NCBI GenBank assembly: GCA_028718865.1
Contig: JAQUKX010000006.1
Span: forward strand, 1 to 62,885
From: Patescibacteria group bacterium
GTDB lineage: Bacteria; Patescibacteriota; Patescibacteriia; UBA1558; GWA2-36-10
DNA length: 62,885 bases
Reading direction: 5' to 3'
This document shows positions 13,352 to 49,347 of this stretch, one piece after another. The notes under the pieces were generated by a model, which made no database searches, had not been told where the DNA came from, and saw only the letters and a program-made list of their open reading frames with translations. Both the position numbers and the translations under genes were made by a program. Within the stretch, counting starts at the first letter, position 1; every line of letters begins with the position of its first letter.

Positions 13352-14392
13352 TTAAATGCGATTTTTAACAATCAACATCGCATCACCAAAAGAAAAAAAC
13401 CGATATTTTTTGGCAATTGCCTTTTTATAAACTTGTAAAATATTTTTTCTCTCTGCCAAAGCTGAGACCATAAAAAGAAGCGAGCTTTTGGGCAAATGAA
13501 AATTGGTAATTAAATCATCAACAAACTTGTATTTATAACCGGGATAAATATAAATATCCACCCACTTAGAGCCAGATTTTAATTGGCCTCTTTGGTCAGC
13601 AAAAGCTTCCAGAGTCCGCGCACTGGTAGTGCCAACAGTCATAATATTTTTGCCGGCTTTTTTTAGTTTGTTTAAAGAGTCAGCCGTTTTTTTATCAATA
13701 CTGGCCCACTCCTGATGTATCTGATGCTTTTTAATATCATCTACTTCCACTGGCGCAAAAGTGCCCAGTCCCACATGAAGAGTTACTTTAAAAATCTTTA
13801 CTCTTTTTTTTTCTAATTTTTTTAAAATTCTGTCAGTAAAATGGAGTCCGGCTGTTGGCGCCGCTGTTGAACCAGAAGTCCTGGCATAAATAGTTTGATA
13901 ATCTTTTTTGATAATTCTACTGTCTTTGGTCTTGATATAGGGCGGCAGTGGCGTATGGCCAATAGTTTCTATTAGTCTATCTAGCTCCGCGCCAGATTTG
14001 TTGAACTTAATCTGCTTTGTTTTGCCGTCTATGTCTTTTATAATTTTAGCCTGCCAACCCGACGGGTCGAAATAAATAACATCGCCTATTTTCAGGTTTT
14101 TCCCGCCAATCAGTGCTTGCCAACCCGACGGGTTAAGCTTCTTTGTTAACAACACTTCTACTTTGCCGCCGGTTTTCTTTTTACCATATAATCTAGCGGG
14201 AAATACTTTGCTTTGATTGACTACCAAAACATCATTGTCAGTTAAAATATCCGGTAAATCATAAAAATGCCGGTGACTAATCTTATTTTTTGCCCGATCA
14301 AAAACCAAGAGCCGAGAGCTGTCTCTCGGTCGAGCTGGTTTTTGAGCAATCAGCTCTTTGGGTAAATGATAGTCAAATAAATTTATGTTCAT
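13352..14392 (-). CDS. queA: tRNA preQ1(34) S-adenosylmethionine ribosyltransferase-isomerase (start at 14392)
   Basis: FDYHLP.ELIAQ, PLPPYI, YQTIYA..GS.AAPTAGLHFT, TLHVGLGTF, LITNFHLPKS, FFSFGDAM. Confidence 0.96.
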   Translation of the reverse strand: MNINLFDYHLPKELIAQKPARPRDSSRLLVFDRAKNKISHRHFYDLPDILTDNDVLVVNQSKVFPARLYGKKKTGGKVEVLLTKKLNPSGWQALIGGKNLKIGDVIYFDPSGWQAKIIKDIDGKTKQIKFNKSGAELDRLIETIGHTPLPPYIKTKDSRIIKKDYQTIYARTSGSTAAPTAGLHFTDRILKKLEKKRVKIFKVTLHVGLGTFAPVEVDDIKKHQIHQEWASIDKKTADSLNKLKKAGKNIMTVGTTSARTLEAFADQRGQLKSGSKWVDIYIYPGYKYKFVDDLITNFHLPKSSLLFMVSALAERKNILQVYKKAIAKKYRFFSFGDAMLIVKNRI

Positions 14393-43619: not shown

Positions 43620-44906
43620 ATGCAAATAACTAAAAAAGAACTAGAAAAATCCCAAATAGAGTTGGCCATTGAACTAAGTGAAGAAGAAGTCCGGCCGCAG
43701 CTGGAAAAAGCTGCTCAAGCTCTATCAGCTCAACAAAAAATCCCCGGCTTTCGACCGGGTAAAGTACCCTATGATTTGGCAAAAAATAAATTTGGGGAAA
43801 TGACTATTTATCAAGCCGCCCTTGACGCTATTATCAACGACAGTTTTTATAAAGCCATAATCAGAGAAAATCTAGAGACAGTTGGTCAGCCAAAAATTGA
43901 TGTAGAAAAAATAGCCCCGGGTAATCCAATAATCTATAAAGCTACAGTGTCTATTTTGCCCAAAGTGGTCCTAGGTCAATGGACGCAAATTCAAATTCAA
44001 AAAAATAAAGTCGAAGTAAAAGAGGAAGACCTAGCTAAAACCATAACCCAGCTACAAAGCATGCGCGCCGAAGAAAAGCTAGTTGACCGAGCAGCCAAAA
44101 ATGGCGACAAAGTAGAAGTTGACTTTGAGGTGCTGATAAACAAAGCAGTGATAGAAGGCGGCAAAAGTCAAAAATATCCTCTGATTATAGGAGAAAAACA
44201 AATGATACCTGGCTTTGAAGAGCAACTAATAGGCCTCAAAGCTGGTGATAAAAAAGAGTTTGAACTCAAATTTCCAGAAAAATATTTTCAAAAAAATTTG
44301 GCCAATCGTCTGGCTACTTTTAAAGTGACTTTAGCAGCTGTCTATCAGAGAAATCTAGCGGAAGCAAATGATGATTTTGCCAAAAAACTAGGCTTTGATA
44401 ATTTGGCAAAATTAAAAGAGCAACTGCAAGAAAATATCAAACAAGACAAGGAAAATAAAGAAAACCAGCGCCTGGAAACAGAAATTATCAAAGAGCTGAT
44501 CAAAATTTGCCAAATAGGCGAACTGCCGGAAAACCTGATTGATAATGAAATCCATAAAATGATCCATGAGCTGGAACACAATATCAGCCGCCAAGGTATG
44601 GACATGGCCGGCTATCTCAAGTCTCTCAACAAAACCCACGATGACCTCCATCAAGATTTTCGAGCCCAAGCCATAGAAAGAGTGCAGGCTGCTTTGATCT
44701 TCAAGCAAATTGCCAAAGAAGAAAAAATCCAAGCAAGCGAAAGCGAAGTAATGGCGGAAATAAAAAAACAAGAAGATTTTTACCGGCAAATCAACAATGC
44801 TCAAGCTCTACAAAATATCCAAAACCCTCTTTACAAAAATCAAGTTGCTTCCTCGCTGATAAACAGCCGAATTATCACTCGCCTAAAACAGGATATTATC
44901 AAATAA
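43620..44906 (+). CDS. tig: Trigger factor
   Basis: IPGFRPGKVP ribosome-binding motif; FKBP domain IPGFEEQLIG. Confidence 0.96.
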   Translation: MQITKKELEKSQIELAIELSEEEVRPQLEKAAQALSAQQKIPGFRPGKVPYDLAKNKFGEMTIYQAALDAIINDSFYKAIIRENLETVGQPKIDVEKIAPGNPIIYKATVSILPKVVLGQWTQIQIQKNKVEVKEEDLAKTITQLQSMRAEEKLVDRAAKNGDKVEVDFEVLINKAVIEGGKSQKYPLIIGEKQMIPGFEEQLIGLKAGDKKEFELKFPEKYFQKNLANRLATFKVTLAAVYQRNLAEANDDFAKKLGFDNLAKLKEQLQENIKQDKENKENQRLETEIIKELIKICQIGELPENLIDNEIHKMIHELEHNISRQGMDMAGYLKSLNKTHDDLHQDFRAQAIERVQAALIFKQIAKEEKIQASESEVMAEIKKQEDFYRQINNAQALQNIQNPLYKNQVASSLINSRIITRLKQDIIK

Positions 44907-45003
44907 ATACTTGGCTCTGGCTTTGGCAAAAAGGCAAAAAATGCTATAATTTCACCATACTGCTTGAAGAATAGCCCGCCAAACAAAACAAGCTTAATCT
45001 CAT

Positions 45004-45792
45004 ATGTACAAAAAAGAATTAACCATTGCCAAAAAAGCCGTTCTACAAGCCGGCGCTATGCTCAAAAAAGAATTTTTAAAGAAAAAAAATCCGTCTTTGC
45101 AATTTAAAAAAAACAACGAAAGAGTAACTGCCTATGATAAAAAAGCGGAAAAAATTATTTTGAGTATCTTAAAAAAAGAATTTCCCAACTATCAAATACT
45201 GTCTGAAGAAGGCGGAGGTAATAAAAATCCAAATGATCTTTGCTGGGTAATAGATCCCTTAGATGGCACTACCAATTTTACTATTAACCATCCTCTATTT
45301 TGTGTAGCCATTGCTCTATTTAAAAAAAATGAGGTAGTCTTGGGAGTAATTTATAATCCTATTCTTGATGAGCTTTATTGGGCTATAAAAGGTCAAGGCG
45401 CTTTTAAAAACAAACAGCGCTTGAAAGTGTCTAAACAAAAAGATTTGAAAAAATCCGTTTTGACCTACTGCCACGGATCAGGGGAAAAAAATACCCAAAA
45501 AGCCTATAAGCTCTACCAGCGCTTTCACAATCTTTCCCGCCACTGCCGCCATTTTGGCTGTACTCAGCTGGAATTGGCCATGGTAGCTGCTGGTAATACT
45601 CAGGCTCATCTGGTAAGTGGTGGAAAAATCTGGGATATAGCTGCCGGCGCCCTAATAGTCAAAGAAGCTGGCGGAACAGTGACTGATTGGCAAAATCGCC
45701 CTTGGAACAAAAAATCTAGTAGTATTTTGGCGGCTCCTAGCCAAATACAGCGCCAATGCCTGCGGGAATTAAAAAAACTGAAGTTGAGCTGA
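45004..45792 (+). CDS. suhB: Inositol monophosphatase family protein
   Basis: ILSEE, WVIDPLDGTTNF, WDIAAG.LIV.EAGG. Confidence 0.88.
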   Translation: MYKKELTIAKKAVLQAGAMLKKEFLKKKNPSLQFKKNNERVTAYDKKAEKIILSILKKEFPNYQILSEEGGGNKNPNDLCWVIDPLDGTTNFTINHPLFCVAIALFKKNEVVLGVIYNPILDELYWAIKGQGAFKNKQRLKVSKQKDLKKSVLTYCHGSGEKNTQKAYKLYQRFHNLSRHCRHFGCTQLELAMVAAGNTQAHLVSGGKIWDIAAGALIVKEAGGTVTDWQNRPWNKKSSSILAAPSQIQRQCLRELKKLKLS

Positions 45793-45843
45793 TAGCATTG
45801 ACTTTTTAGCTTATTTCTATATAATAGTTATGCTGAAATTCAA

Positions 45844-45920
45844 GCGAGTGTAGTTCAGTTGGCTAGAACGTTTCCTTGCCAAGGAAAAGGTCGCCGGTTC
45901 GAATCCGGTCACTCGCTCCA
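45844..45920 (+). tRNA. tRNA-Gly (GCC)
   Basis: GCGAGTG...TTTCC-TTGCCAA-GGAAA...CCGGTTCGAATCCGG-TCACTCGCTCCA; TTGACT/TATAAT promoter upstream. Confidence 0.95.
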
Positions 45921-45936
45921 TTAAAATAAAAAATCT

Positions 45937-45983
45937 GGAAAAGGTCGTCCAGCCCTTCGCGAAGGGCTGGATCACTCGCTCCA
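45937..45983 (+). repeat. Partial 3' copy of tRNA-Gly with the T-arm replaced by a 24-nt palindrome
   Basis: GGAAAAGGTCG + TCCAGCCCTTCGCGAAGGGCTGGA + TCACTCGCTCCA. Confidence 0.85.
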
Positions 45984-46077
45984 GTACTTTTCGACAGGCT
46001 CCGGCTGGCGAAGAATGCCTCCAAATAAATTCCTGAGCTTACGAGAGATTGTAGTCGGAGGACTACATTTTATTTTT

Positions 46078-46141
46078 GCCGGCGTGGTGCCCCGCTAGTC
46101 AGCGGGATCTTCGTCTCGCTACGCTCGACTACGAGAATGGT
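46078..46141 (+). repeat. Partial 5' copy of tRNA-Leu interrupted by 45 nt of palindromic repeats
   Basis: GCCGGCGTGGTG + insert 46090-46134 + GAATGGT. Confidence 0.7.
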
Positions 46142-46197
46142 GCATTGATAATAATACTTTAAAAACTAAAACTTTAATTCACACTTCATAATGCTAA

Positions 46198-46282
46198 GCC
46201 GGCGTGGTGGAATGGTAGACACGCAGGACTTAAAATCCTGTACCCATTGGGTGTGTCGGTTCAAGTCCGACCGCCGGTACCA
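46198..46282 (+). tRNA. tRNA-Leu (TAA)
   Basis: GCCGGCG..CAGGA-CTTAAAA-TCCTG, long variable arm, GTCGGTTCAAGTCCGAC, ACCA. Confidence 0.95.
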
Positions 46283-46295
46283 AAATTTACTCAGC

Positions 46296-46338
46296 AAAAA
46301 AACAACCCAGCCCTTCGCGAAGGGCTGGGTTGTTTTTT
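46296..46338. terminator. Perfect palindromic bidirectional terminator between convergent tRNA-Leu and tRNA-Cys
   Basis: AAAAAACAACCCAGCCCTTCG|CGAAGGGCTGGGTTGTTTTTT. Confidence 0.88.
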
Positions 46339-46347
46339 ATTTTCTGA

Positions 46348-46422
<75 letters not shown>

Positions 46423-46443
46423 TTGTTTTTCTTTGTTTTTATC

Positions 46444-46503
46444 TTGCAGGCCTCTGCCTGGCCCCTGTCCCGTACTTGTGACGGGAACGCCAGCTACTTG
46501 GCC
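46444..46503 (-). repeat. Partial 5' copy of tRNA-Cys with the D-loop replaced by a hairpin
   Basis: GGCCAAGTAGCT + GGCGTTCCCGTCACAAGTACGGGACAGGGGCC + AGGCAGAGGCCTGCAA, versus tRNA GGCCACGTAGCC-AAGTGGTA-AGGCAGAGGTCTGCAA. Confidence 0.8.
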
Positions 46504-46617
46504 TTATTTTCCCTAAGAAACAAAAAAGCTCCTAAAATTTAGCAGATTTTACAAATATTTTCAAGGCACTTAAAACTTTATTTTATCCTCCAAAAATGCT
46601 ACAATCACCCTACAAAT

Positions 46618-49347
46618 ATGTCAAAAAAACAGGAAAAATTAGTATTAATTGACAGTCATGCCCTACTCCATAGGTCCTGGCATGCCATCCCGCCTTTAAA
46701 CACCAAAGACGGCCTGATGGTCAATGCTGTTTTTGGCTACAGCTCATTGCTCTTAAAAATAATTCAAGAACTAAAACCAGATTATATTATTGCCACCTTT
46801 GACTTGGCGGAAAAAACTTTTCGCCATCAGAAATACTCAGACTATAAAGCCCAGAGAGTCAAGCAGGCTGATGAATTTTATAATCAAATCCCTTTGGCTT
46901 ACAAAGTGCTGGAAGCATTTTCTATACCCATTATCAGCCAATCGGGATATGAAGCTGATGATATCATCGGCACTATTACTGAAGAAGTTTGCCAAAAATA
47001 CCCCCATATTCAAACCACTATCATCACCGGGGATTTGGATACTCTACAATTAGTCAACGATAAAGTAAAGGTTTTTACTTTAAAAAAAGGCCTAAGCGAT
47101 ACCATTACTTATGATTTGACCGCCGTCAAAGAACGCTATGGTCTAAACCCTGGCCAATTAGTAGATCTCAAAGCTATCCAAGGAGATGCCTCTGACAATA
47201 TCAAAGGAGTAAAGGGTATAGGCGAAAAAGGAGCCAATGATCTTATTAGACAATTTGGCTCTTTGGAAAATCTTTATCAAAAAATAGAAAAAGCTGATCT
47301 AAAAGAAAGAACCAAGCAACTGCTTTTAGAACAGAAAAAGGAAGCTTTTGCCAGCAAAGAACTTTTGACTATAGTCAAAGACGTTCCTTTAAATTGGCAA
47401 TTAGAAACTGCTCGCTTTGAAAATTTTGATCCAGAAAAAGTCTATCAAATTTTTCAGGAATTGGAATTTAGATCTCTGATTAACAAAATTCCTCAGCAAA
47501 GCGCTATTTTAAACTCTCAAAATCAAGACTTAAAAATAAATGACGCTAATTATAAAATAATTGCTGATCAAAAAAGTCTAACTGATTTTTTGGCCGAATT
47601 AAAAAAACAAAATATTTTTGCTCTAGATAGCGAAACTTCCGGCTTGGATGTTTTGCAAGCAGAAATTTTGGGCTTGTCTTTTTCCTGGCAGGAAAAAAAC
47701 GGCTATTTTATAATTCTCCAAGAGGAAAAATTCCGCGCTTTAGCTCTTAAAGAATTAAAGCCTGTTTTGGAAAATCCGCAAATAACTAAAATCGGTCATA
47801 ACCTCAAATTTGATTACAAGGTTTTAAAAATTTTAGGAATTGATCTCCAGGGCATTATTTTCGACACTATGCTGGCTGCTTATCTGATAAACTACAGCCG
47901 TGGCCTGAAATTGGAAGAACTGGCTTTTAGTTATTTGGGCTACAAAAAACTAAAATTAGCCGATCTCCTGGAGGAAAAACCTAAAGGAAAAAAAGAAATA
48001 AAAGTCAGCGATATATCCATGGATAAATTGGCTTGGTATGGCGCTGAAGATGCTGATATTACTTTTAGGCTTTATCAAAAAATTCTACCCCTTTTAAAAA
48101 GCAATAAAAATTATGACCTTTTGCTAAAAATGGAAATACCGCTACTGCCGGTTTTAGCAGAAATGGAATTAGCCGGCGTAGCCCTAGATTCCACTTTTTT
48201 GAAAAAAATGTCCAAAGAGTTTGATAAAGAAATAAAAAATCTGAACAAAAAAATATATCAGCTAGCCGGACGAGAGTTCAATATTGCCTCCCCTCTGCAA
48301 CTAAAAGAAATATTATTCAATGATTTGAAAATCAATCCTCAGGGAATCAAAAAAACCAAAACCGGACTTTCCACAGCTGCCTCTGAACTGGAAAAAATGA
48401 GAAAAATCCATCCAATAATCAACTTAATTAGCGAGCATCGAGAATTAAGTAAATTGCAGTCAACTTATATCAAAGCCCTCCCCCAAATAGTCAACAAAAA
48501 AACTCAAAGAGTCCATACCAACTTCAATCAGACTATCACTGCTACTGGTCGCTTATCTTCTTCTGATCCTAATTTACAAAATATCCCTATCCGAACTGCT
48601 TTAGGTAGGAAAATACGTCGCGCTTTTGTCGCTCCTGACAAGCACGTCCTTCTCTCGGCTGACTATTCCCAAATTGAACTGCGACTGGTAGCCGCTCTTT
48701 CTCAGGATCCCAAAATGATAGCTAGCTTTAAAAAGGGCGAAGACATTCATGCTCGGACTGCCGCCGAAATACACAAGATAGCTCTAGAGGATGTTAGTAA
48801 AGACATTCGTCGGACTGCCAAAGAAATTAATTTTGGCATTTTATACGGCCTAGGATCTTTGGGTTTATCGCAAAGAACTGACTTAAATAGAAACGAAGCC
48901 AAAGAATTTATTGAACGCTATTTTTCCATCTACAAAAAAATAAAAATTTATATTGAGCAAACCAAAAACTTTGCCCGCCAAAACGGCTACAGCCAAACTA
49001 TTTTTGGTCGGCGGCGATATTTGCCAGATATCAATTCGTCCATGCCTATGCTCAGAGCCGCTGCCGAACGTATGGCAATAAATATGCCTGTCCAAGGCAC
49101 AGCTGCTGATTTGATGAAATTGGCAATGGTAAAAATATATCAAGGCTTGCCAAAAATCAGCCAAGCTTCTAAGATAATTCTACAAGTTCATGATGAATTA
49201 GTTTTGGAAGTTCCCAAAAAAGACCTAAAAGCAGTGGCTCTTCTGGTTAAAAACACTATGGAAAATATTCACCAATTACCCGTACCCCTATCAGTTGATC
49301 TAGAAATAGGCCAAAATTGGGGCGAGTTGGAAAAATATGATTTGTAA
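46618..49347 (+). CDS. polA: DNA polymerase I (5'-3' exo, intact 3'-5' exo motifs, polymerase)
   Basis: YEADD, ALDSET, HNLKFD, YGAEDAD, TGRLSSSDPNLQNIP, DYSQIELR, QVHDELV. Confidence 0.98.
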   Translation: MSKKQEKLVLIDSHALLHRSWHAIPPLNTKDGLMVNAVFGYSSLLLKIIQELKPDYIIATFDLAEKTFRHQKYSDYKAQRVKQADEFYNQIPLAYKVLEAFSIPIISQSGYEADDIIGTITEEVCQKYPHIQTTIITGDLDTLQLVNDKVKVFTLKKGLSDTITYDLTAVKERYGLNPGQLVDLKAIQGDASDNIKGVKGIGEKGANDLIRQFGSLENLYQKIEKADLKERTKQLLLEQKKEAFASKELLTIVKDVPLNWQLETARFENFDPEKVYQIFQELEFRSLINKIPQQSAILNSQNQDLKINDANYKIIADQKSLTDFLAELKKQNIFALDSETSGLDVLQAEILGLSFSWQEKNGYFIILQEEKFRALALKELKPVLENPQITKIGHNLKFDYKVLKILGIDLQGIIFDTMLAAYLINYSRGLKLEELAFSYLGYKKLKLADLLEEKPKGKKEIKVSDISMDKLAWYGAEDADITFRLYQKILPLLKSNKNYDLLLKMEIPLLPVLAEMELAGVALDSTFLKKMSKEFDKEIKNLNKKIYQLAGREFNIASPLQLKEILFNDLKINPQGIKKTKTGLSTAASELEKMRKIHPIINLISEHRELSKLQSTYIKALPQIVNKKTQRVHTNFNQTITATGRLSSSDPNLQNIPIRTALGRKIRRAFVAPDKHVLLSADYSQIELRLVAALSQDPKMIASFKKGEDIHARTAAEIHKIALEDVSKDIRRTAKEINFGILYGLGSLGLSQRTDLNRNEAKEFIERYFSIYKKIKIYIEQTKNFARQNGYSQTIFGRRRYLPDINSSMPMLRAAAERMAINMPVQGTAADLMKLAMVKIYQGLPKISQASKIILQVHDELVLEVPKKDLKAVALLVKNTMENIHQLPVPLSVDLEIGQNWGELEKYDL

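Follow-up and report, generated by a model that had tools for sequence, protein, structure and literature searches.

What is a piece of a tRNA gene doing just behind an intact gene of the same kind, and why has one of its arms been exchanged for a hairpin? This question is raised by a 47-nt element at positions 45937-45983 of contig JAQUKX010000006.1 of an ultra-small bacterium of the Patescibacteria group, where it follows the gene for tRNA-Gly(GCC). The window, as we use the word, is the whole stretch of this contig that was analysed, 62,885 nucleotides; the host genome (G000) comprises 877 kb in 24 contigs, at 40% G+C and 98% completeness. The element repeats two pieces of the tRNA-Gly gene around a palindrome that takes the place of the T-arm, and we will call it, and others like it, a ghost. 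We believe the best explanation is that it is not a working RNA gene. It would be a relic of tRNA gene replacement driven by homing nucleases, with its hairpin tip later overwritten by the palindrome of a local terminator. Our rough probability for this explanation as a whole is 0.6.

A partial copy of tRNA-Gly in the tRNA-Gly trailer

The working tRNA-Gly(GCC) is called by both ARAGORN and Rfam at 45844-45920 on the forward strand. Its nt 39-49, GGAAAAGGTCG at 45883-45893, are found a second time at 45937-45947, and its nt 65-76 with the CCA, TCACTCGCTCCA at 45909-45920, a second time at 45972-45983. The ghost begins 16 nt past the CCA of the tRNA and reads GGAAAAGGTCG / TCCAGCCCTTCGCGAAGGGCTGGA / TCACTCGCTCCA. 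The 15-nt CCGGTTCGAATCCGG that makes up the T-arm of the gene (nt 50-64) is in the ghost the perfect 24-nt palindrome TCCAGCCCTTCGCGAAGGGCTGGA (45948-45971). Since the ghost retains both G49 and U65, the swap is exact at the base of the T-stem. An earlier note, made from the letters of the window alone, had described the two pieces as exact copies and the swap as exact, and sequence comparison bears it out on both. The same note held that the 22-nt core of the palindrome, CCAGCCCTTCGCGAAGGGCTGG (45949-45970), is also a terminator core at 46307-46328. The two are identical, the second is the tip of the terminator between tRNA-Leu and tRNA-Cys, and the number of such matches expected by chance was 0 in 100 shuffles of the window.

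Coincidence does not account for the two tRNA pieces either. In 20,000 shuffles of the 300 nt 3' of tRNA-Gly, some exact 11-mer of the tRNA, whichever it was, turned up in 68 and some 12-mer in 18, and the shuffle-based chance of finding both in the correct order is about 3e-6. The ghost matches no Rfam family. ARAGORN calls no tRNA at 45937-45983, and an Rfam cmscan of 44500-47500 with permissive filters returns only the three working tRNAs and nothing at 45937-45983. A simple tandem duplication of nt 39-76 with the spacer can be ruled out, because the 16-nt spacer is not repeated after the ghost.

A strong promoter at 45798-45825 precedes the gene and the first forward-strand terminator comes at 46050, so the ghost lies in the 3' trailer of tRNA-Gly. 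The locus sits between an inositol-monophosphatase-like gene (end at 45792) and polA (46618), and its features are these:

45798..45825, forward: sigma-70-type promoter of the tRNA-Gly unit, TTGACT-16-TATAAT, with 11/12 consensus matches
45844..45920, forward: working tRNA-Gly(GCC) with encoded CCA (ARAGORN; Rfam tRNA, 71.3 bits)
45921..45936, forward: 16-nt A+T-rich spacer between tRNA and ghost (the G001 equivalent is 15 nt, 56% identical)
45937..45947, forward: ghost segment A, tRNA-Gly nt 39-49 (3' strand of the anticodon stem, variable loop, G49), 11/11 in G001
45948..45971, no strand: 24-nt perfect palindrome in the T-arm slot, replacing nt 50-64 (core 45949-45970)
45972..45983, forward: ghost segment B, tRNA-Gly nt 65-76 (U65, acceptor 3' strand, discriminator, CCA), 12/12 in G001
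45984..46049, forward: hairpin trailer, TTTCGAC...CGAAGAATGCC, TCCTGAGC, resembling the post-CCA trailer modules of relatives' working tRNAs
46050..46077, forward: intrinsic terminator of the Gly unit, TGTAGTCGGAGGACTACA and a T-run (hairpin 46050-46067), homologous to the hairpin before tRNA-Leu in G017
46078..46141, forward: 5' ghost of tRNA-Leu(UAA), nt 1-12, a 45-nt hairpin insert and D-loop GAATGGT (repeat search; alignment)
46198..46282, forward: working tRNA-Leu(UAA) (ARAGORN, Rfam), with its own promoter-like site at 46125-46152
46297..46338, no strand: bidirectional terminator between the convergent tRNA-Leu and tRNA-Cys, its tip the second core copy (46307-46328)
46348..46422, reverse: working tRNA-Cys(GCA) (ARAGORN, Rfam)
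46444..46503, reverse: 5'-half ghost of tRNA-Cys, nt 1-11, a hairpin for the D-loop, and nt 22-37, stopping in the anticodon loop

Three ghosts, of Gly, Leu and Cys, thus lie within 660 bases of the window. The Gly promoter is homologous in relatives, 11 of which have the same promoter and leader before tRNA-Gly or its 5' ghost. The homology of the trailer 45984-46049 to relatives' modules is clear in its 3' part and only moderate in its 5' part. The trio of Gly(GCC), Leu(UAA) and Cys(GCA) genes (45844-46422) is linked here and in relatives. In E. coli the glyW-cysT-leuZ operon comprises the same three genes, and its 3' spacer serves as a sponge for small RNAs. Read on the reverse strand, the first ghost segment and the left arm of the palindrome (45925-45952) form a terminator-like hairpin with a T-run (CTGGACGACCTTTTCCAG ATTTTTTATT).

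As RNA the palindrome is predicted to form an 11-bp stem with a 4-nt loop, and the whole ghost to fold at -25.3 kcal/mol (z = -4.7). The earlier note suggested that the acceptor 3' strand of the ghost could pair with the 5' strand of the real tRNA. The unconstrained minimum free energy (MFE) fold of 45844-45983 does pair the two, stacked on the palindrome, at -51.9 kcal/mol; the native cloverleaf with a separate ghost hairpin comes to -51.0 kcal/mol over the same stretch. These values leave out the tertiary contacts of the tRNA, and the native 3' strand is transcribed before the ghost strand. In nearest-neighbour terms the two folds are tied, which makes the pairing thermodynamically possible and is no evidence that it forms or matters. 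The MFE fold of the full precursor contained implausible long-range pairs and was set aside.

Ghosts and nuclease genes in this genome and its relatives

The earlier note proposed a comparison with the orthologous locus in relatives, and it shows that the ghost is no isolated case. The one other species of the genus compared (G001, 69% complete) has a ghost at the equivalent place with another hairpin in the slot. Fifteen nt after its tRNA-Gly it reads GGAAAAGGTCG / TCCCGCTCTGTGGGG / TCACTCGCTCCA, a 3' ghost with a 15-nt hairpin, and it has a 5' ghost as well. Across the family the Gly-Leu locus is syntenic in 12 genomes. Six of these have nothing more than a promoter, tRNA-Gly, a short spacer and tRNA-Leu, so this plain operon is ancestral and the Gly ghost is derived. 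The others show several architectures. In G008 and G014 there are 5' ghosts between the ancestral promoter and the working Gly gene. G017 has a full-length tandem ghost upstream that consists of nt 1-49, TCCCGCGTTGCGGGA and nt 65-73, lacks the CCA, and has its anticodon changed from GCC to GCT. G053 and G054 too have Gly ghosts, which consist of nt 1-49, a hairpin we call T*, and nt 65-72; T* is also what fills the slot in G001 and G017. For tRNA-Gly, a ghost of the kind in the window is present in only 5 of the 39 genomes of the family. Pattern scans for further orthologues in all species genomes and in metagenome contigs recovered only G017-like and G001 records, together with spurious matches in high-G+C coding sequence. 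The Gly-Leu spacer of G017, TCTCACTCGTGGTC, was considered as an acceptor-strand ghost and rejected; tRNA-Thr of G001 has the same module as its trailer, and tRNA-Leu of G050 has a looser version of it.

T* is a 15-nt hairpin, TCCCGC-NNN-GYGGGR, that fills exactly the nt 50-64 slot in ghosts of tRNA-Gly, tRNA-Pro and tRNA-Asp. It has the length of the arm that it replaces; adding G49 and U65 (17 nt in all) gives a helix of 7 bp closed by a loop of 3 nt. A pattern search finds such ghosts in 9 of the 86 genomes of the order, with no match to a reversed-pattern control; the pattern fixes the stem and cannot speak to covariation. In 215 further genomes of the class there is no true case; the single match lies in coding sequence of high G+C and is spurious. 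This genome has a second T-slot ghost at C14:1619-1649, ATGAGGTCG / TCCCGCTTTGCGGGG / TCACCCCGACCA, which lies directly 3' of tRNA-Pro(GGG) and is of the tRNA-Pro(UGG) type in sequence. An observation from another genome (L035 in G005:C2, about 176109) concerns a nested tRNA-Asp. Its outer ghost carries a twin hairpin in the D-loop, a hairpin in the anticodon loop and T* in the T-slot, and is enclosed by a perfect 15-bp complement of leader and trailer, GCGCGCCTGCCTGTG ... CACAGGCAGGCGCGC.

The palindrome in the window keeps the outer T-CC...GG-A of T*, and the family to which its core belongs was not found in G001. For this reason the swap probably took place in two steps, of T-arm for T* in the ancestor of the genus and of the T* tip for the core in this lineage. 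This is the simplest history for these sequences. The 22-nt core has four exact copies in this genome (45949-45970, 46307-46328, C1:4268 and C2:15162) and a variant with 2 mismatches at C1:67170. It forms the tip of terminator-like hairpins with varied lower stems here and in G023 and G036, the latter two having several copies each. Elsewhere in the phylum it is rare: of 400 other genomes scanned, 1 contains it, and the element therefore cannot be called widespread.

The Gly ghost is one of many. About 12 of the 47 tRNA genes of this genome have partial copies of themselves on the same strand within 400 nt, with hairpins at the positions of the D-loop, anticodon loop or T-loop. The 5' pieces lie upstream and usually consist of nt 1-12 or 1-13, a G+C hairpin insert and the remainder of the D-loop; the 3' pieces lie downstream, with the break in the T-loop or at the T-arm. 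A module of two hairpins, TCCCGCC-loop-GGCGGGA and then CCCCGCC-loop-GGYGG, occurs in ghosts of six tRNAs (Gly, Lys, Arg, Asp, Thr and Ser), where this twin hairpin occupies a D-loop or an anticodon loop (L062, L059, L061 and L067 in G001; C7:35540-35612 here). Its insertion is precise, at T^CA, in either orientation and with no target duplication, and at the Arg locus it is 91% identical between G000 and G001. The hairpins thus behave as copy-and-paste units.

Several other tRNA loci are unusual. At C2:37750-38000 (reverse strand) one tRNA-Thr(CGU) is nested in another: a complete inner gene occupies the D-loop of an outer Thr(CGU)-like gene that lacks nothing else. The outer gene has a perfectly paired acceptor stem (GCCGAGA/TCTCGGC), its own T-arm and two further hairpin inserts, and the sequences that flank the inner gene are complementary to each other. 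Transfer RNAs Thr(UGU) and Lys(UUU) (C4:89475-89530; C2:80890-80947, reverse strand) share a two-hairpin trailer right after the CCA, TCCTTCGCTTRCGAAGRATGTCGTYCG...GCGTAGGACGACA; other tRNAs of relatives have different post-CCA hairpin trailers that likewise open with a TTCG motif. The 3' CCA is encoded in 46 of the 47 predicted tRNA genes of the genome. A possible link between the CCCGC hairpins of the ghosts and those of the genome's integron-like arrays would rest on a stem of only 5-6 bp.

The nuclease genes are found at other tRNA loci. On contig C12 an open reading frame (ORF) for an 88-aa GIY-YIG protein (C12:6658-6395; Pfam E = 5e-17) lies between a ghost and the working gene of tRNA-Lys(CTT), and its stop codon is inside the working tRNA. 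In the ghost nt 24-31 are replaced by TCCGCCAACTGGCGGA, and a second, D-slot ghost is seen further upstream of the cassette (C12:6250-6810, reverse strand). The cassette of ghost, nuclease and tRNA, with the same hairpin, recurs in G052 (88% aa identity), G054 (84%) and G010 (65%); in these three genomes, which come from two other genera, it adjoins tRNA-Arg(TCG) (L071, L072, L073). For PolA the identity is no more than about 71%, even inside this genus (G000-G001) and likewise from genus g12 to genus g17, so a nuclease that is 84-88% identical points to the spread of the Lys cassette between genera. Small GIY-YIG ORFs occur in 74 of the 86 genomes of the order, in up to 15 copies. The second one here, at C14:1157-924, flanks the tRNA operon that holds the Pro ghost. 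Between it and this six-tRNA operon, after tRNA-Asn, there are three tandem copies of a 54-nt unit, tgaaccgtcatggttcatggcggagccaaaacttcgccattgaaaagtagatca (C14:1160-1359, reverse strand).

The next question is which copy is the old one. At the Gly locus the working gene is as far from the ancestral promoter as in the ancestral arrangement. What follows the CCA of the ghost resembles the trailer modules found after the CCA of working tRNAs in relatives, which gives moderate support to the idea that the ghost is the older copy. The Leu ghost does mark where the Leu gene used to be: in an alignment, the hairpin and T-run that precede it match the hairpin ahead of G017's working Leu gene, and the Leu gene of relatives starts where the ghost lies. 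Genus g12 offers a clearer picture. In G050 and G051 the only Gly gene has the family-typical acceptor GCGAGTG. In G053 and G054 a T* ghost with GCGAGTG stands at the ancestral promoter and is followed by a working Gly gene with GCGGGCG, an allele otherwise seen in G052, which the PolA tree places outside the G053/G054 clade. The broken copy is the one in the old place, and the working copy looks like an imported allele.

We can now set out the scenario that we favor. The anatomy of the ghosts, their recurrence and their derived state are observed, as are the nuclease cassettes at other loci and the spread of these between genera; cutting at tRNA arms, the sequence of events and the lack of a function are inferences. 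The tRNA genes of this order (Komeilibacteria-like Patescibacteria) would have been duplicated or replaced repeatedly, with redundant copies persisting as hairpin-substituted ghosts. The driver would be the multi-copy, free-standing GIY-YIG nucleases of about 88 aa, which may cut tRNA genes as SegB of phage T4 does. Repair of the cut gene would then copy in a cassette that carries a working tRNA. Old copies would persist only if they lack the target arm; a copy whose T-arm has been replaced should lack a SegB-type site, and by this analogy the arm substitutions in the surviving ghosts have a rationale. The substituting unit would be a small G+C-rich hairpin module that takes the place of a loop or arm, T* in the case of the Gly, Pro and Asp ghosts. 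The Gly ghost would be what is left, the 3' half (nt 39-76), of an older or duplicated tRNA-Gly copy whose 5' part was lost, probably by recombination between repeated 5' segments. In this lineage the T* tip would have been replaced by the 22-nt core of the terminator-capping palindrome family. The resulting order is promoter, working tRNA, 16 nt, ghost, trailer and terminator, in which the ghost would be transcribed together with the tRNA, within its 3' trailer, and would probably be lost as the 3' end matures.

Weighing the explanations

There are real difficulties with this scenario. The first is that we know of no double-strand-break repair that yields an exact swap of an arm for a hairpin of the same length. 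The second is that the Gly-Leu-Cys locus has no nuclease gene or remnant of one, so the Gly ghost can at most be a relic that has no nuclease of its own or a product made in trans. Nor does the distribution of the nucleases help. They occur in all 9 of the T*-bearing genomes but also in 65 of the 77 others, and an association with T* is uninformative when the family is present in 74 of 86 genomes.

The third difficulty is the conservation of the ghosts, which we consider a genuine puzzle. The tRNA-derived segments are 23/23 identical between G000 and G001 and 58/58 identical between G053 and G054, whereas the adjacent spacers are 39-59% identical and PolA 71-76%. Among the conserved positions in g12 are acceptor bases that the adjacent working gene does not share, so conversion from that gene is not the source of the identity. 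An old neutral relic should have decayed, and the relic reading therefore needs recent horizontal spread or gene conversion or else is incomplete. Recent spread as one block fits poorly, since the spacers between ghost and working gene differ between species. Three readings of the conservation remain: recent spread between lineages, as with the Lys cassette, selection on the ghosts, or both. Turnover is also indicated, since G000 and G001 have orthologous Thr(UGU) ghosts in which neither the inserts nor their positions agree.

Selection is at the center of the best of the rival ideas, according to which the ghost is a maintained functional RNA derived from tRNA, a body or half whose T-loop is zipped into a stable helix and which is co-transcribed with the working gene. 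Such an RNA could be an alternative partner for the tRNA 5' strand, a modulator of processing or folding, or a decoy for a tRNA-binding factor. The argument for it is the one just given, identity amid randomised spacers and acceptor bases in g12 that were not copyable from next door. T* keeps the exact length of the T-arm and varies in the loop and not in the stem (which the search pattern fixes), both g1 species retain the CCA, the pairing with the 5' strand is predicted to be isoenergetic with the cloverleaf, and the ghost lies within the Gly transcription unit. However, the Gly ghost is sporadic and is absent from most relatives. Its architecture varies by lineage (tandem and full-length without CCA, nested, or a 3' half only), and the anticodon is mutated in G017. 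A conserved T* has been overwritten here by an unrelated palindrome, and the turnover of the Thr(UGU) inserts is equally hard to reconcile with a maintained function. We judge this reading unlikely.

A second function-based reading regards the tRNA pieces as incidental and the hairpin as co-opted trailer structure, at which transcription would pause or partly terminate, or which would protect the tRNA-Gly precursor by stopping 3'-to-5' exonucleases. The textbook bidirectional terminator that lies 358 nt downstream is indeed capped by the same core, as are hairpins of terminator-like form in G023 and G036, the predicted hairpin is very stable, and it stands between the mature 3' end and the terminator at 46050. 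But it is followed on the forward strand by TCACTCGCTCCAGTAC, with no U-run, and a terminator scan calls only 46050-46067 and 46297-46338 on that strand. The real terminator is 67 nt further on, and hairpins that lie exactly in the arm slots of ghosts of three tRNA species would be left unexplained. We find this quite improbable. With the two readings taken together, a retained function of some kind is still improbable in our opinion and worth keeping in mind.

A broader proposal concerns T-slot ghosts as a class, and we regard it as doubtful. They could be selected tRNA-derived RNAs specific to this order, made of a tRNA scaffold or 3' half in which the T-loop has become a 7-bp helix of the same length. 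They would be transcribed along with the working tRNA and stay unchanged as the spacers around them randomise; in the precursor they could compete for the acceptor 5' strand, or they could act as decoys immune to T-arm-recognising nucleases or other tRNA-binding factors. Alternatively the swaps might be the trace of a DNA mechanism, as yet undescribed, by which folded sites trade their hairpin tips.

Very unlikely indeed is that the ghost is a remnant of an attachment site of the attL/attR type, left by an integrase element that entered at the anticodon loop and was later deleted. Integrases that target the anticodon loop leave identity blocks that run from this loop to the 3' end of the tRNA, and the copy here begins right after the anticodon loop and reaches the 3' end. 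A conventional case exists in this genome as well, a 24-nt copy of the 3' end of tRNA-Ser(GCU) on C5, 3.8 kb downstream of the gene. Against this, the copy of tRNA-Gly is only 16 nt away and is not contiguous, being interrupted by the hairpin that replaces the T-arm. There is no integrase-sized ORF or remnant of an element between the inositol-monophosphatase-like gene (45792) and polA (46618), and the neighboring Leu and Cys 5' ghosts cannot arise by integration. It also speaks against this reading that none of the 86 genomes has an integrated element at this locus between the tRNA and an intact copy of nt 39-76. Finally, chance resemblance or an assembly artefact is extremely improbable, the former by a joint probability of about 3e-6 and the latter because independent assemblies have orthologous ghosts, that of G001 sitting 15 nt past its tRNA-Gly.

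Transfer RNA genes are usually regarded as the most static parts of bacterial genomes. About a quarter of those in this genome are flanked by hairpin-substituted wrecks or nested in them, with small mobile nuclease genes at some of the sites. If replacement driven by nucleases is the right explanation, selfish DNA fights its battles in the essential, single-copy tRNA genes of minimal genomes, and these genes also provide a path for gene flow from one genus to another. Such loci would continue to be missed or misread by annotation pipelines, and the exact swaps of arm for hairpin would show which features of DNA the nucleases recognise. Should the ghosts instead prove to be RNAs under selection, they would represent a new type of tRNA-derived regulator. 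It is important to separate what is new here from what is not. Turnover of tRNA genes associated with homing endonucleases is already known, and so are tRNA gene remnants. The pattern of wrecks in Patescibacteria is apparently undescribed: full-text searches of the literature yielded no description of partial, hairpin-substituted tRNA gene copies in this group. What we add is a module for the T-arm slot, T*, that is confined to one order, a probable origin of the palindrome swap in two steps, the evidence of the g12 alleles and the conservation puzzle.

Known systems

The ghosts resemble several known systems in part. Split and multi-intron tRNA genes of archaea and red algae, with introns of the BHB type, are interrupted at the D-, anticodon- and T-loops, sometimes in nested fashion (PMC3978253, PMC3728597). 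Once the splicing endonuclease, on which they depend, has acted, nothing is missing from such genes (PMC3978253, PMC3728597), whereas the Gly ghost has no nt 50-64 and there is no copy of nt 1-38 outside the working gene. A copy that lacks both the 5' half and the T-arm nucleotides could not be restored to a tRNA by any splicing. Duplications of the attL/attR type share with the ghost a direct repeat of a 3' portion of the tRNA, located 3' of the intact gene and starting at the boundary of the anticodon loop. They differ in that the 16-nt spacer here has no element or integrase, in the replacement of the T-arm, and in the existence of 5' ghosts.

The palindromes themselves bring to mind the REP/REPIN sequences, which RAYT transposases mobilise, and the Rickettsia palindromic elements, which are also short, G+C-rich and multi-copy (PMC3733652). 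Some of these act as terminators and some insert in other palindromes or in genes (PMC3733652). Insertion of REP-type palindromes inside small target palindromes is documented (PMC3733652), and the 22-nt core is, like them, multi-copy, dispersed and mostly intergenic. Insertion exactly into the slots of tRNA arms has not been described for REPs. This genome does encode a RAYT-like Y1 transposase of 190 aa (C17:9850-10422, the single Y1_Tnp ORF, 30.1 bits). It is flanked by another palindrome, AACCCGTCGGGTT, which has 17 copies in the genome, one of them inside the ORF. A link between RAYT and the ghost palindromes was rejected, since neither T* nor the 22-nt core flanks the gene, which has its own REP. 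This REP-like palindrome, (C)AACCCG[T/A]CGGGTT(G), has one of its 17 copies at 14122-14134 of the window and four around or inside the RAYT-like gene (C17:9700-10440), one of these in frame. The gene and its palindromes look like a REPtron in a Patescibacteria genome.

The closest comparison for the replacement scenario is with SegB of phage T4, a free-standing GIY-YIG homing endonuclease encoded in the T4 tRNA gene cluster (PMC2330249). The site that it recognises includes a motif conserved in tRNA genes, the T-psi-C stem-loop, and it drives the non-reciprocal inheritance of itself and the neighboring tRNA genes (PMC2330249). The differences are that SegB belongs to a phage and the ghosts to a bacterial chromosome, that the Gly-Leu-Cys locus is without a nuclease gene, and that SegB homing is not reported to leave hairpin-substituted partial tRNA copies. 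The likeness is that of a small GIY-YIG gene lodged among tRNA genes. Such genes lie beside affected tRNAs in the C12 and C14 clusters, and on C12 the 88-aa ORF stands between the ghost and the working tRNA-Lys in a cassette that recurs across genera. By analogy with SegB, we regard the GIY-YIG proteins of these Patescibacteria as putative cutters of tRNA genes.

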